Source of the DNA: Candidatus Paceibacter sp.
Lineage (GTDB): Bacteria > Patescibacteriota > Minisyncoccia > UBA6257 > 02-FULL-45-10c
Direction: 5' to 3'
Assembly (NCBI GenBank): GCA_020724845.1
Contig: DYGE01000005.1
Coordinates: forward strand, 6,116 to 70,115
DNA: 64,000 nt
The position numbers were made by a program, and so were the translations under genes. Shown here piece by piece: positions 6,396 through 43,667 of the stretch; positions within the stretch are counted from its first letter, which is position 1; each line of letters opens with the position of its first letter. The notes under the pieces were generated by a model, which saw nothing but the letters and a program-made list of their open reading frames with translations, was not told the DNA's origin and did not search any database.

Positions 6396-7079
6396 TTATC
6401 CGATTTTCTCCAGAGCCAACCTGGCCGCTTCTATTTCAGCGTCTTGCTTAGACAGGCCCTTGCCTCGGGCTATTTCTTTGTCGTTGATAAACACTCCTAC
6501 CGTGAAAACTTTTTTATGATCCGGACCGCTGTCGCCAATCAGCTTATAAGCCGGAGTTTCCTTAAACTTTGCTTGCGATTCTTCCTGCAATAAACTCTTC
6601 GGATCTTTATATAGGCCCTTACTAATAACTTCTCCGATTTCCGGAAGAACAACTGCATCAACAAAATTTTGCGCCGCCGCGTATCCCCCATCCAGATAGA
6701 TCGCCCCGATTAAGGCCTCCATAGCATTGGCGAGGATAACTTCCCTGGCGCGCCCGACGTCCTTGGCCTCTCCCCTGGACATTAGAAGAAAATTTTCCAG
6801 CTTAATTTTGCGGGATAGCTTAGCCAGCATCTGATAATTGACCAGAGCGGCCCGGAAAGTAGTCAATTTGCCCTCCTGCTCTTCCGGGAATTTTTCAAAT
6901 AAGGCTTCAGTGGAAGCCAGTTCCAAAACGGCATCGCCGAGGAATTCCAATCGCTCGTTGTGAGGCAATCCCCACTTCGGATTCTCGTTTAAATAAGACC
7001 TGTGCGTCAGGGCTTCCCTTAGCAGATCTTTGTTTTTAAATTCGTAAGAGATCAGTTTCTCTAATTTTTCTGTATTCAA
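6396..7079 (-). CDS. rnc: Ribonuclease III
   Basis: RNase III signature ERLEFLGDAVLEL, C-terminal dsRBD, 227 aa. Confidence 0.9.
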   Translation of the reverse strand: MNTEKLEKLISYEFKNKDLLREALTHRSYLNENPKWGLPHNERLEFLGDAVLELASTEALFEKFPEEQEGKLTTFRAALVNYQMLAKLSRKIKLENFLLMSRGEAKDVGRAREVILANAMEALIGAIYLDGGYAAAQNFVDAVVLPEIGEVISKGLYKDPKSLLQEESQAKFKETPAYKLIGDSGPDHKKVFTVGVFINDKEIARGKGLSKQDAEIEAARLALEKIG

Positions 7080-7087
7080 ATTATTTT

Positions 7088-7168
7088 ACGAACGTACGAA
7101 AATGTACGAAAGTACGAAAGTTTTGCTATTTTTTCGTAATTTCGTATGTCTTCGTAACTTCGTACGGA
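7088..7168. repeat. Hairpin-array element A: TACGAA x4, loop, TTCGTA x4 (imperfect ~34-bp stem), filling the nusB-rnc intercistronic gap
   Basis: TACGAA at 7088, 7096, 7106, 7114; TTCGTA at 7134, 7142, 7152, 7160. Spacers are 2-4-2 nt on both arms, giving a palindromic arrangement. Confidence 0.8.
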
Positions 7169-7670: not shown

Positions 7671-7770
7671 TACGAAATCTAATTACGAAAGTACGAAACG
7701 GTACGAATGTACGAAATTCTTTTGACTACCCCTTTCGTACTTTAGTATATTTTCGTAATTTCGTAAGCTG
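7671..7770. repeat. Hairpin-array element B: TACGAA x5, loop, TTCGTA x3, filling the rpmF-nusB gap
   Basis: TACGAA at 7671, 7684, 7692, 7702, 7710; TTCGTA at 7734, 7752, 7760. Confidence 0.75.
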
Positions 7771-7772
7771 AT

Positions 7773-7925
7773 TTATTTCTGTTTGCAATTTGAACAAATC
7801 TTATGAGCAAGTTTCGGGGCCTGGCAATTCTGGCAAACCGCCAGCTGGACTTTTTTCAAAGCCAAATGAGATCGGCGGCGGCCAACCTTTGATCTTGTAT
7901 GATGTTTTACTGGCACTCCTCCCAT
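7773..7925 (-). CDS. rpmF: 50S ribosomal protein L32 (50 aa, below the ORF-track cutoff)
   Basis: Manual translation gives MGGVPVKHHTRSKVGRRRSHLALKKVQLAVCQNCQAPKLAHKICSNCKQK. This has the bL32 N-terminal basic motif and a CxxC...CxxC zinc ribbon. Confidence 0.85.
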   Translation of the reverse strand: MGGVPVKHHTRSKVGRRRSHLALKKVQLAVCQNCQAPKLAHKICSNCKQK

Positions 7926-8010
7926 AGTTAAAATTATACCTTAATTAAGATAAAGTTATACTCTTTCCCGCCGAATGTCAACAGATCACAGGGCACTATC
8001 TCTGAATATA

Positions 8011-8256
8011 AGGAAAACCATGCTATTTCCGGACATTCGGGCTGCGCAGTGGGGACAAAGTGTCATAACCAGAAAGTATCCTCCTACCGGCACCAGCGTA
8101 GTTCCGCTCCCGCGGCGGAACTCGCTTACAACTCCCAGCCGGAGTCGCCCATAGGCGACACCAAGCTCCGGCTGGTCCGTTAGTTGCCGCACAGAGGATA
8201 CTTTCTGGTTATGTTTATCAGGTGGAGGCGTTGTCCGGAAATAGCATGGTTTTCCT
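8011..8256. ncRNA. 246-bp structured element with nested perfect inverted repeats (25-bp outer stem, 20-bp inner stem, branched GC-rich apex). Candidate ncRNA or palindromic DNA element.
   Basis: 8011-8035 is the exact reverse complement of 8232-8256. 8064-8083 is the exact reverse complement of 8194-8213. The inner region has three further perfect hairpins (gttccgc/gcggaac, cagccggag/ctccggctg, tcgcc/ggcga). The ORF 7986..8192 inside it is probably spurious. Confidence 0.4.
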
Positions 8257-8351
8257 AAAAATCTGAAAGTTATTTCCTGCTATACGCGGATTGTACTCCC
8301 CGGATGACCTATGCTATCCTAACCCCATAGTTCTTCGACACAGGGAAAGCA

Positions 8352-9242
8352 GTGAATCCCAAAAGAGAAAAATATTTTATCTTGTCCTTATTTGTCTTGG
8401 CCGGGTCATTTTTCATAATGAATTTGCTGTTCTCCTTAGCCGGGCCCGAATTTTTTAAGGCAATAGGAGTACGAGTATACAGAAAGATGGAAAAGCGGGA
8501 AAGCCAAATCGTCAAAAACGTTCCGGGATTGAAATTCCCGCATAAAGCATATTCTAGCAATGACGGCGATCCAAGTCCGGAAGAAATCTACGAAAAAGCC
8601 GGTTATGTAACCAAGATCGAAGTTTGGCAAGACACGATCCTTCCGGGGATAAAATCTTTCGCCGGATCGGGATCGAGGTCAGTGATCAATTGCAAAACTT
8701 ATGACAAGTGCGTACTCACCGCCTGGCATGTAGTGGACCGCTCCACCTCTACTAATCTTTACTTGGCACGCTTTAAGGATGGGTCACCACCCGAAATCAT
8801 GGAGTTAGTCGGTTGGTCAGAAAAGTATGATTTCGCAGTCCTGAGATTCAGTAACGCGAAGTCAACACCAACAGCGAAGACCGCTGCCGTCATCGGGAAA
8901 TCCTCAGAACTGAAGCCCGGCTCAAAAATCATGGCCATCGGATCCAATATCTTTGGCGATTATTGGTTCAGCGTAGTTGGAAACCTATATAAAGAAGCCG
9001 GCGCCCCCAAGCCAAACTTAAAACTTCAACTTCAAGCGCATGGATTACCGAATGAAAAGGTCTTGATTTTCTCTACGCCGCTTTTCGCCGGCTTCTCCGG
9101 CGGCCCGCTGCTTAACGCAAAAGGAGAGCTGATAGGAATCAGCTCCGCCGTAATTATCATAGACGGGATTCCGACTTATCTAGGGATGCCAATTGACGAA
9201 ATTATGGAAGAGATGGAAGACATGCTTAAACCTGAAAAATAA
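8352..9242 (+). CDS. Secreted trypsin-like (S1 family) serine protease
   Basis: N-terminal TM/signal, His motif LTAWHVVD, Ser motif GFSGGPL (GDSGGP-like). Confidence 0.7.
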   Translation: MNPKREKYFILSLFVLAGSFFIMNLLFSLAGPEFFKAIGVRVYRKMEKRESQIVKNVPGLKFPHKAYSSNDGDPSPEEIYEKAGYVTKIEVWQDTILPGIKSFAGSGSRSVINCKTYDKCVLTAWHVVDRSTSTNLYLARFKDGSPPEIMELVGWSEKYDFAVLRFSNAKSTPTAKTAAVIGKSSELKPGSKIMAIGSNIFGDYWFSVVGNLYKEAGAPKPNLKLQLQAHGLPNEKVLIFSTPLFAGFSGGPLLNAKGELIGISSAVIIIDGIPTYLGMPIDEIMEEMEDMLKPEK

Positions 9243-9282: not shown

Positions 9283-9351
9283 ATTTGAAAATACCATCTT
9301 ATCCCCAGAAATTATTGCAACCTCGGAACTCAAAAGATAAAATTACTACAT

Positions 9352-17024: not shown

Positions 17025-17031
17025 ATTTAGA

Positions 17032-17095
17032 CCGTAGGCAGTAGCCCGCAGTCCGTAGCAATTTTTTCTACACGCTACGTACTACGATCTACGAA
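17032..17095. repeat. Hairpin-array element C (GTAG words x3, loop, CTAC words x4) between the HD-protein stop and the gatB start
   Basis: accGTAGgcaGTAGcccgcagtccGTAGcaattttttCTACacgCTACgtaCTACgatCTACg; near-identical to the element at 34557-34630. Confidence 0.75.
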
Positions 17096-18400
17096 CTATT
17101 TGGTGAATTCTAAAAGGTAATCTTTGATTTTATCCGCCTTCTTGTGAAGTTGGTCCCGATATTCGGGGAAAGCGCAAACTCGCAGCATATGGTGAGAACG
17201 CCCATATTCCACCATGGCCGCGAAATGGCTGGGGTAAAAATCGCTCAGCTTAACAATTTTCCCCTCTCTGCCGTAAACTTTCACGTCTTCCGGCACAAAT
17301 CGATGATGCGACATTGGCGGCACTACCACTATCTCGGATTCCGGGATGTCAGCTTCTTTAGCGATACCCCTCTCTAATTCGGCCAGTTTTTCCAGGGTAG
17401 AAATCGCGCCGCCGGACATGAAGCTATCCAAGACGGATTCTGACAGGCCAATCACCTGCAGAGCCTTATCTTCCCGGCGCTCATCCATCTTCACAAACTG
17501 CTCGTACTTTATCTCAATGGCTGTTTTCGGGAAATTCCCGGCCCGCAACCGGCTATTATACTTCTGAATCAGAGGATTTTGAGAAATTTCAAATCTCCCC
17601 AAAAGGCCGAAATCGGTCAATTTCCAAATGTCATGCACCGACATTCCGTCTTTGACCAGCTCATAAGCCATGTGCTGAATCAAACGCTGAATAATGGCGG
17701 ATTTTTTTCTCAAATAAACATGCTTGGACATCTTGATGTAAAAATCCTGAATCGCTTTAGCTTGGTCTATCACCTTCTCGTCCACCACCACCTGATTGTC
17801 TATAAAATAGATATAGCGGGATAAGTAAGCCACTCCGGGAACTTCCTGAATAGTATAAAATGCGTCTCGGGAGAGATAATCAAACTTTTCCATTCCCAGA
17901 TTTTTGTCGTGAATCGCGAGATAAAGCTTGTCTTCGTGCCTAAAGAACTTAAGTAAAGCTTCAAAATCCACCCCCACCTTTTCAATCGGCTCCCGCAAGT
18001 TGCTAACGATTTCAATAGCCATCGCGTCATCGGCTCGTAACCCGGATTTGCCGGCATCCGGCAGGAGATCAAACAACGGCTCGACGGTGTGCGAAAAAGG
18101 GCCATGCCCTATGTCATGATAAAGAGCATAAGCGGTCGCAAGCTTAGCCTGCTCTTTGGTAATCATGCCGCTTTCCGCCCAGCGCCTAACTAAATTCTTA
18201 GTCCTCTGGAAAGCGCCAAGACAATGCTGTTTGCGGGTGTGGGTAGCGGACGGGAAAAGCAGAAAAGCCAGCCCAAGCTGGTATTTATAAGCCAAGGATT
18301 GAAACTGCTCCACATCAATCATCGGAAGAAATTTGCTGATATCGATCAAACCGAGAATCGGATCGGAGACAATTTTCTGTTCAGGTAATTTAGCGGCCAT
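17096..18400 (-). CDS. dGTPase-family HD-domain dNTP triphosphohydrolase-like protein
   Basis: HD motif YHDIGHGPFSHTVE after HCLGAFQRT. Confidence 0.75.
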   Translation of the reverse strand: MAAKLPEQKIVSDPILGLIDISKFLPMIDVEQFQSLAYKYQLGLAFLLFPSATHTRKQHCLGAFQRTKNLVRRWAESGMITKEQAKLATAYALYHDIGHGPFSHTVEPLFDLLPDAGKSGLRADDAMAIEIVSNLREPIEKVGVDFEALLKFFRHEDKLYLAIHDKNLGMEKFDYLSRDAFYTIQEVPGVAYLSRYIYFIDNQVVVDEKVIDQAKAIQDFYIKMSKHVYLRKKSAIIQRLIQHMAYELVKDGMSVHDIWKLTDFGLLGRFEISQNPLIQKYNSRLRAGNFPKTAIEIKYEQFVKMDERREDKALQVIGLSESVLDSFMSGGAISTLEKLAELERGIAKEADIPESEIVVVPPMSHHRFVPEDVKVYGREGKIVKLSDFYPSHFAAMVEYGRSHHMLRVCAFPEYRDQLHKKADKIKDYLLEFTK

Positions 18401-34549: not shown

Positions 34550-34556
34550 TTTTTAG

Positions 34557-34630
34557 ATCGTAGGCAGTAGCCCGTAGTTCGTAGAAATCATATTTTTATT
34601 CTACGCCCTACGCTCTACGTACTACACGCT
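34557..34630. repeat. Hairpin-array element D (GTAG x4, loop, CTAC x4) between the pheS stop and the pheT start; a copy of element C
   Basis: atcGTAGgcaGTAGcccGTAGttcGTAGaaatcatatttttattCTACgccCTACgctCTACgtaCTACa. The first 30 nt are near-identical to 17032-17060, including the junction with the start codon. Confidence 0.75.
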
Positions 34631-43394: not shown

Positions 43395-43513
43395 GGCAGG
43401 CTCCTAGATCAACTTTTGAACAAGCTTATTATATTTTAAAATATAATTGCAGCATTGTGAACCTTTTCGGGAAAGCTTTAGTTTTCCTGACTCACTTTTT
43501 GTTCAAATCCGGT

Positions 43514-43539
43514 CGCAAAAATAAAAATTGGACTTAAGT
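43514..43539. terminator. Palindromic terminator 3' of tRNA-Asp
   Basis: aaaaATTGGACTTAAGTCCAATttttt. Confidence 0.6.
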
Positions 43540-43545
43540 CCAATT

Positions 43546-43620
43546 TTTATTTTTGCGGGCGCGACCGGATTTGAACCGGCGGTCTCCTCCGTGACAGGGA
43601 GGCGTGTTAACCAGGCTACA
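43546..43620 (-). tRNA. tRNA-Asp (GTC)
   Basis: GGGCGCG-TG-GTGT-AGCCTGGTTA-ACAC-G-CCTCC-CTGTCAC-GGAGG-AGAC-CGCCGG-TTCAAAT-CCGGT-CGCGCCC-G. Discriminator G73. Confidence 0.85.
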
Positions 43621-43667
43621 CCACGCGCCCATATTTAAAAAAGCATAAGCTAAACCGAAGCCAATGT

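Follow-up and report, generated by a model that had tools for sequence, protein, structure and literature searches.

The question raised by this locus is what a 246-base intergenic element, built around two nested and perfect inverted repeats, is doing between rpmF and a protease gene. The window, by which we mean the whole stretch of 64,000 nucleotides analysed, comes from Candidatus Paceibacter sp., an uncultivated member of the Parcubacteria within the Patescibacteria (assembly GCA_020724845.1, contig DYGE01000005.1, positions 6,116 to 70,115 of the forward strand), and the element occupies positions 8011-8256. On one side it is flanked by rpmF (7773-7925, minus strand), beyond which lie nusB, rnc and ftsH, and on the other by the gene of a trypsin-like protease (8352-9242, plus strand) followed by dnaE; rpmF and a protease gene are the neighbours that the first-pass annotation had named. 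The element belongs to a small, undescribed, clade-restricted family of conserved structured elements. The reading that we favour, with a probability of roughly 0.45, is that it is a structured RNA restricted to one clade, which functions through its conserved internal loop and whose stems are kept perfect by template switching at the DNA level.

The outer inverted repeat, or closing stem (8011-8035 / 8232-8256), is 25 bp long and the inner one, stem P1 (8064-8083 / 8194-8213), is 20 bp long, both of them perfect and both at the coordinates originally given. For perfect repeats no more than 500 nt apart, the chance expectation in 64 kb is 2.8e-8 at 25 bp and 2.9e-5 at 20 bp. Between the two stems lies an internal loop of 28 nt on the 5' side (8036-8063) and 18 nt on the 3' side (8214-8231); of the two lengths reported earlier, 18 nt was correct and 27 nt was one short. 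The P1 arms, separated by 110 nt, enclose a GC-rich, Y-shaped apex (8084-8193, defined by fold and covariance model) in which the 5-bp helix P2 (8088-8092 / 8185-8189) opens into hairpin A (8095-8126; 4+9 bp) and hairpin B (8135-8175; 10 bp plus a nested 5-bp hairpin, with the asymmetric loop CACCAAG), all given for the plus strand. The anatomy of a rod, a bubble and a second rod with branched apex is borne out both by the fold and by the repeat search. Folded as RNA the plus strand reaches -138.6 to -140.1 kcal/mol (z = -11.5, with none of 200 shuffled sequences folding as well) and the minus strand -139.6 to -143.5 kcal/mol (z = -12.1). The core has a GC content of 60-64%, in a window that has 45% overall and 28-38% in its ordinary intergenic regions. 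The remark that such perfect stems are unusual for an RNA was justified, the helices being nearly Watson-Crick-only and the two strands folding equally well.

That the element is an assembly artefact can be practically discounted, because its homologues come from other samples. An identical sequence is present in the JGI contig Ga0246236_1000243 (L007), and the Logan assembly of SRR5011275 reproduces positions 8202-8266 exactly, including the 3' arm of the closing stem, which is independently assembled in L001.

The search for homologues started from the proteins encoded next to the element. For the protease it yielded four homologues only, and for DnaE a series of relatives of decreasing similarity, of which the nearest named ones are Candidatus Harrisonbacteria with 75-78% identity. 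All three lineages with the most similar DnaE (80-81% identity) carry a related element, and in each it lies upstream of dnaE, on the same strand as that gene. In L009, L010, L011 and L016 (P0006, P0008) a homologue of the core is found, in which CAGGAAAGTATCCTCTTATCGGCACCGGCGT and CCGTAGTTGCCGCACAGAGGATACTTTCCTG are nearly identical to the window and the hairpins A and B are completely unlike those of the window in sequence. The 25-mer TAGTTGCCGCACAGAGGATACTTTC of the core is identical in L009 and L016, as are the upper 12 bp of P1 (GAAAGTATCCTC), and a 28-mer is identical or nearly so in L016. With the window core as its only input sequence, a covariance model gives 94 bits for L009 and 91 bits for L016 (E about 1e-20), and has no other match in the window or in nine other loci. 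L011 and L016 keep the 5' loop strand (CTCGGGCTGGCGGTGGG), are without closing stem and carry a different 3' hairpin followed by T8, and L009 is without closing stem and without 5' loop strand. L015 (P0007) carries a short version of about 105 nt without the Y-shaped core, composed of a simple hairpin of 9-10 bp, the loop strands CATTCGGGCTGGTAGTGGG (5') and GATGGAGGCGG (3'), and an imperfect closing stem (TTTCC-GCCA) that aligns with the top ~10 bp of the window's closing stem (TTTCCGGACA). Local alignment against shuffled targets gave p<=0.0005 for the 5' half against L015, p=0.017 for the 3' half against L015, the two being collinear, and p=0.001 against L016. Within the internal loop, the 5' block CATTCGGGCTG..AGTGGG (8034-8053) is kept in all three homologous lineages; on the 3' strand the Shine-Dalgarno-like TGGAGGCG (8223-8230) is kept in L015, a related GGAGGTGAGGAGG is found in L016, and a Shine-Dalgarno-like GGAGG is present in all lineages. 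The element points the same way with respect to dnaE in all four configurations, although what lies upstream of it varies (the rpmF promoter, the protease gene or a PD-(D/E)XK-like gene). At the syntenic locus of the next lineages out (L012, L013, L017 and L002 to L005) there is no such element.

Searches beyond these loci neither named the element nor extended the family. At gathering thresholds Rfam 15 recognises three tRNAs only in the window, and at E<=10 over positions 7700-8500, both strands, it returns noise only, without any match to a 6S-type model; the elements of the relatives likewise give noise only, so that the Rfam scan proposed with the first-pass annotation supplied no RNA name on either strand. 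Of the further copies that had also been envisaged, none came to light in the sequence covered: pattern, blastn, repeat and covariance-model searches for the arms, the core or the whole element find no second copy in the window, and there is none in about 60 kb of the relatives' loci besides the syntenic one. Exact arm patterns (21-mer and 20-mer) and a core junction pattern have 0 matches in 185,579 GTDB species genomes, in scans which did not return the window's own contig either. Outer-arm patterns in JGI metagenomes gave only a chance 20-mer match in an unrelated fungal-like contig (L006), a core 19-mer and the 46-nt module described below have no match in IMG/VR, and blastn against phages and plasmids gave none. 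The searchable literature holds nothing relevant on non-coding RNAs of the candidate phyla radiation (CPR) or on 6S RNA in Patescibacteria.

The degree of divergence gives these similarities their weight. In dnaE, the window, L015 and L016 lineages are identical at 34-37% of four-fold degenerate sites, against 27% at random, so that neutral sequence has reached saturation. At such divergence, 25-mers without a difference and loop blocks that are kept must reflect purifying selection or else recent transfer; the second is unlikely, given that the hairpins separating these blocks have unrelated sequences. Conservation falls mainly on nucleotides predicted to be unpaired: the two loop strands, the junction strands YUAY, UCCGU(U)AGU and CACA (in the window CTAC, TCCGTTAGT and CACA), and the loop ACCRAG. 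In the helices it is the pairing that is kept. Between the window and L016, P1 has 14 identical pairs, two changed on both sides and none on one side; in hairpin B nine of the ten outer pairs and one inner pair are changed on both sides, all of them Watson-Crick; P1 and hairpin B together thus have 12 pairs changed on both sides, none on one side and none broken. Hairpin A is entirely different in sequence with its pairing retained. Conserved unpaired positions together with variable peripheral hairpins are the usual signature of a functional folded nucleic acid or RNA.

The mechanism that we propose has the element acting as RNA, probably transcribed from the plus strand, which is the strand of dnaE. 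The ancestral unit would be a rod, composed of the closing stem, a large internal loop with two purine-rich conserved strands (consensus 5' CAUUCGGGCUG-N3-4-RGUGGG and 3' UGGAGGCG) and a distal arm. The latter carries, in the window and in the L016/L009 lineage, the Y-shaped domain, a three-way junction that keeps its junction nucleotides while its hairpins vary freely and that is presumably an accessory module, and the internal loop may serve as a binding platform for a protein or ribonucleoprotein partner. The transcript is predicted to be cut by RNase III, because it has two helices of at least 20 bp, and so would not persist as a 246-nt species; the uninterrupted helices measure 25 and 20 bp, and rnc, whose product carries the domains Ribonuclease_3 and dsrm, is found at 6396-7079, about 1 kb from the element. 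Perfect stems would be due to intrastrand template switching (quasi-palindrome correction), by which one arm is copied onto the other; this would lead to symmetric changes, leave no G·U pairs and make the palindrome liable to deletions and rearrangements. Inverted repeats are known to be perfected and lengthened by template switching, which also gives rise to RNA hairpins and preserves them, with changes that look compensatory (PMC7202029, PMC3820800, PMC8794818). Hairpins of this origin share with the element the perfect arms and the symmetric differences between homologues, and the window holds a further palindrome of this kind at a tRNA end; they differ in that template switching is a mutational mechanism and no functional class, which explains the perfect stems and not the conservation of the loop.

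That second palindrome lies at 43497-43580, downstream of a tRNA gene (43556-43630, minus strand). It is a perfect palindrome of 22+22 bp, to which the 3' end of that same tRNA has been added in inverted copy on the far side (GTTCAAATCCGGTCGC / GCGACCGGATTTGAAC), and is the second case in this genome of growth by inverted duplication of neighbouring sequence.

Several features argue for a plus-strand RNA. In L016/L009 the core is followed by a hairpin with six G·U pairs, which folds only on the plus strand (-51.8 versus -35.3 kcal/mol), and then by T8, which argues for plus-strand transcription there. The orientation relative to dnaE, constant despite the differing upstream neighbours, supports the same strand. 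In L009 and L015 the element lies past the terminator of the upstream gene, and its position between that terminator and the downstream gene's own promoter is an argument for a separate unit; in L016 the downstream promoter reads TTGAAA-17-TAAAAT. In the window, a putative protease promoter, the extended -10 box TGCTATCCT (8312-8320, plus strand), lies downstream of the element, which therefore is not in the 5' untranslated region of the protease; the box was recognised by its conservation: L002, L004, L005, L012, L015 and L017 have a TGnTAnnnT box about as far ahead of the protease start. High GC content is a further argument for a structured RNA, such RNAs being enriched in long GC-rich intergenic regions (PMC8723152).

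Against an RNA-level function stand a number of observations. G·U pairs account for only one of the 78 pairs in the window helices and none of the 50 in the L016 core, whereas neighbouring RNA-type hairpins of the same genomes have 15.5% (p = 3e-5 versus the window, 2e-4 versus L016), and such scarcity is atypical for selection on the RNA level alone. Both strands fold equally well, and for the core it is the minus strand that folds better. The scan found no consensus promoter or terminator at the element; in particular, neither of its ends has an intrinsic terminator (GC-rich hairpin with U tract) on either strand. The comparisons rest on only two or three independent sequences. The family has been seen in three lineages only, and L012, L013 and L017 lack it at this locus. 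The architecture is also unstable, with L015 lacking the core, L016 the closing stem and L009 the 5' loop strand in addition.

Some of these points suit an element that works as DNA, and the arguments for the two levels are mutually compatible. A palindromic, recombinogenic element would form a hairpin or cruciform in single-stranded or supercoiled DNA, any transcript being incidental; its conserved unpaired nucleotides could be read by a DNA-processing protein (a recombinase, an HUH-type nuclease, a priming or replication factor), or it could be a selfish, non-autonomous mobile element resembling REPINs or miniature inverted-repeat transposable elements (MITEs). Helices made of Watson-Crick pairs only in both lineages, strands that fold equally well and the symmetry of every difference between the arms are what this explanation expects, and the borders of the element behave like those of a palindrome. 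L009 and L016/L011 have dnaE genes 100% identical at the nucleotide level, yet they diverge exactly at the base of P1, which is a recent rearrangement at the palindrome. The independent contigs L010 and L001/L008 both end inside P1 arms, the latter at 8202 in the inner 3' arm, and long palindromes count among the recognised sites of fragility (PMC7999016). The L015 copy looks like a palindrome deletion in which the centre and one arm are gone, the element lies on different sides of the protease gene among lineages, and the 46-nt module beside the L016 copy recurs inverted 3.4 kb away. A short direct repeat, TCTGAA, is found 4 nt before (8001-8006) and 5 nt after (8262-8267) the element; it does not abut the arms and may be due to chance, so there is no clean target-site duplication. 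The first-pass annotation had considered a DNA palindrome or MITE an equally good fit: the palindrome part is evident in these dynamics, and the MITE part is unsupported by copy number, the 64-kb window having a single copy and searches of the other loci examined, the species genomes, IMG/VR, phages and plasmids yielding no further one. No transposase or recombinase adjoins any copy in all loci examined. REP/REPIN, ERIC, Correia, BIME and MITE elements are, like this one, intergenic nested palindromes, with perfect terminal inverted repeats, rearranged borders and a variable position relative to genes; they differ in being multicopy and often transposase-linked (RAYT, IS), whereas here one copy per locus was found, and its unpaired blocks are under selection. 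In shape alone, parvovirus inverted terminal repeats and the telomere foldbacks of Streptomyces are also comparable, with a long perfect stem capped by two smaller perfect palindromes, Watson-Crick only; those are found at the ends of linear replicons and have a replication role, while our element is chromosome-internal, between housekeeping genes. A purely DNA-level explanation must further face the 110 nt between the P1 arms, which make simple cruciform extrusion impossible, and the conservation of unpaired blocks at saturated divergence, which requires a selective agent; it leaves the high GC content and the constant orientation unexplained. Taken together it is the main rival of the reading that we favour, and we consider it rather unlikely.

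Other roles have been weighed against the same evidence. Classical RNase III processing signals are the phage T7 R1.1-type sites and the stems of rRNA precursors. The element resembles them in having two duplexes of at least 20 bp around an internal loop, in a genome that encodes RNase III, and it could act in cis as a processing or stability signal or as a transcriptional insulator between the upstream unit and the protease/dnaE unit. In L016 the upstream gene and the element are not separated by a terminator, and beyond the element comes a hairpin with T8; in L002 an unrelated element with a 20-bp perfect closing stem is found at the same position upstream of dnaE, which suggests a positional role. 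RNase III sites, however, need neither conserved loop sequences nor a conserved three-way junction, and cleavage is only predicted; moreover the window copy lies between divergent promoters with no evident upstream unit on the plus strand, the upstream gene of L009 and L015 already has its own terminator, and many relatives do without the element. A role of this kind is therefore improbable. We judge a little more improbable still the resemblance to 6S RNA noted by the first-pass annotation, taken as membership, namely an open-promoter mimic sequestering the RNA polymerase holoenzyme, with the stems standing for DNA duplexes (the closing stem for the downstream and P1 for the upstream one) and the loop for the transcription bubble. 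The window geometry (25 bp, a 28/18-nt loop, 20 bp) is close to that of 6S RNAs (RF00013 and lineage-specific families): a rod-like molecule, two long helices and a large two-sided loop, apparently stand-alone, intergenic and single copy as far as visible; and the niche may be vacant, as the searchable literature reports no canonical 6S RNA from Patescibacteria. But the covariance models do not match at E<=10, 6S helices are regularly bulged while these are perfect, and the element has 246 nt with a branched apex. Its loop strands are purine-rich and strongly conserved in sequence, which is atypical of 6S bubbles. The geometry is lost in the homologues, L015 having a 9-10-bp distal hairpin and L016/L009 no closing stem, and the distribution looks narrow, the element being absent at the locus of the next-nearest lineages and its core pattern from the GTDB species genomes, against a near-universal 6S. 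For the window copy by itself a 6S-like mode of action is still conceivable. An invertible DNA switch (inverton), in which the 25-bp or 20-bp repeats would flip the segment between the divergent rpmF and protease promoters, is very improbable. The perfect inverted repeats are of the usual size around ~200 bp between divergent genes, contigs break within the arms, and L009 has the loop-strand 10-mer GTAGTGGGAA reversed, with a chance match of roughly 0.006 by a rough and uncomputed estimate; yet the core has the same orientation in every assembly seen, no invertase is nearby, no convincing promoter lies within the segment, and the copies of the relatives are not flanked by such repeats.

Returning to the structured RNA that we favour, the closest likeness of the element, at least in appearance, is to a bubble-bearing rod of the 6S or RNase III type, and it evolves like an extragenic palindrome. 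A more specific proposal, which we put forward tentatively and with considerable doubt, is a new structured RNA class of a Harrisonbacteria-related CPR clade. Its conserved purine-rich loop would have a core cellular machine as its partner (RNA polymerase, the 30S subunit via the Shine-Dalgarno-like strand, or an RNA-binding protein), and its Watson-Crick-only Y domain would be shaped by RNA selection and template switching, or would alternatively serve recombination or priming in the form of folded single-stranded DNA. Real and selected as it is, the family is tiny, with three lineages. The non-coding RNAs of CPR bacteria are almost uncharted, and in very small genomes a selected 246-nt non-coding element is unlikely to be idle. 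At this locus template switching and structural selection meet on the same hairpins, and perfect stems or compensatory changes prove no single functional level.

A number of known classes were considered and set aside. Signature sequences of the signal recognition particle RNA, RNase P, tmRNA, T-boxes and riboswitches are absent by eye and no model matches, in agreement with the first-pass annotation as regards the first three. GGUAGUG and GUAGGGAAC resemble the loop E region of 5S rRNA, a coincidence given that no 5S model matches at E<=10. Small open reading frames behind the Shine-Dalgarno-like block are, by inspection, not conserved between lineages. A retron (msr/msd) would have a reverse transcriptase next to it, and none was found, the neighbours at every locus being rpmF, nusB, rnc, protease and dnaE. 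Nothing points to a replication origin: GC skew runs monotonically through the window, and sites like DnaA boxes show no enrichment. The motif GTAG(T)GGGAA, considered as a recurrent binding site of a protein, is not enriched in the window either.

On the rpmF side, a putative rpmF promoter (7955-7981, minus strand; TTGACA at 7981-7976 and TATAAC at 7960-7955) lies between the element and the gene, with GTCAA at the same place in L004, L005 and L015; it was missed by the strict promoter scan because its spacer is 15 nt. The flanks of the element, 8001-8030 and 8262-8284, have TCTGAA...TGCTAT in common in direct orientation, and promoter-like boxes of the ATGCTAT type occur three times on the plus strand (8020, 8279, 8312) and once inverted in the 3' arm. 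This arrangement suggests a local duplication around an insertion. An origin of the 5' outer arm from the protease promoter region, with which L015 shares the 8-mers CACTATCT and CCATGCTA, stays a conjecture at p=0.74 for that similarity. Further downstream, the motif TT(A/T)TCCCCA(A/G)AA(A/T)TTATTG (window 9298-9320, L016:1325-1376, L013:2945-2965) begins immediately ahead of the -35 hexamer of the likely dnaE promoter, extends into it, and resembles a DnaA box (TTATCCACA, 8/9), and L002 and L017 have TTATCCAC in the same place. It may reflect control of dnaE by DnaA; window-wide such boxes are not enriched.

The comparison of the loci brought up other structured elements. In the 5' untranslated region of the trypsin-like/HtrA-type protease gene, just downstream of the TGnTAnnnT box, a rod-like RNA of about 115 nt (hp115) is found in L002:775-890, L004:606-724 (= L003:60-180), L009:1641-1757, L012:1530-1644 and L017:2013-2144, and is absent in the window, L005 and L015. 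The 5' strand hardly varies (AAAGGAAAGGGCAArGACTC...CGACTCTATCCCTAmGGAT), the 3' strand does and forms 5-7 G·U pairs, and the plus strand folds much better than the minus strand. A covariance model from the five copies (R1) scores its members at 109-123 bits and there is no Rfam match; a single extra match of the hp115 pattern (L019) lies inside a coding region and is due to chance. With its better sampling than that of the main element, hp115 is a candidate new cis-regulatory leader. An origin of the window element from this leader was discarded, as R1 has no match at E<=10 in window 7900-8400.

The upstream genes at the rearranged border of P1 differ between the dnaE-identical assemblies (L009:2585-2640 against L016:1020-1085 and L011:1280-1345), with the protease gene in the first and a phosphoglycerate mutase fragment plus the PD-(D/E)XK-like gene in the others. 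The 46-nt module GTAGGGAACTT.A.C.TGGCCTAGCGGCC.TGAGCGGGTTCCC is found at L016:1238-1283 (plus strand) and L016:4610-4655 (minus strand), and likewise in L009, L010 and L011. The two copies flank dnaE in inverted orientation, each inside a different closing stem of 16-17 bp with three G·U pairs and pairing only on the module-bearing strand, which looks like a small repeated hairpin RNA or mobile module. The unrelated element of L002, in the protease-dnaE spacer (1807-1944), has its 20-bp perfect closing stem (CCCCGCACCTTTGGAAGAT...) around three hairpins (z = -8.7); its sequence is not similar to that of the window element and matches no Rfam family. Finally, degenerate short repeats fill several spacers: TACGAA/TTCGTA around nusB (window 7080-7165 and 7680-7770), CGTAG/CTACG at window 17026-17098 and 34552-34624, 78% identical over 73 nt, and, in the nusB-rpmF spacer of the relatives, the analogous but different TAGCG (L012), TACTAAT (L004) and TTTTAGC (L015).

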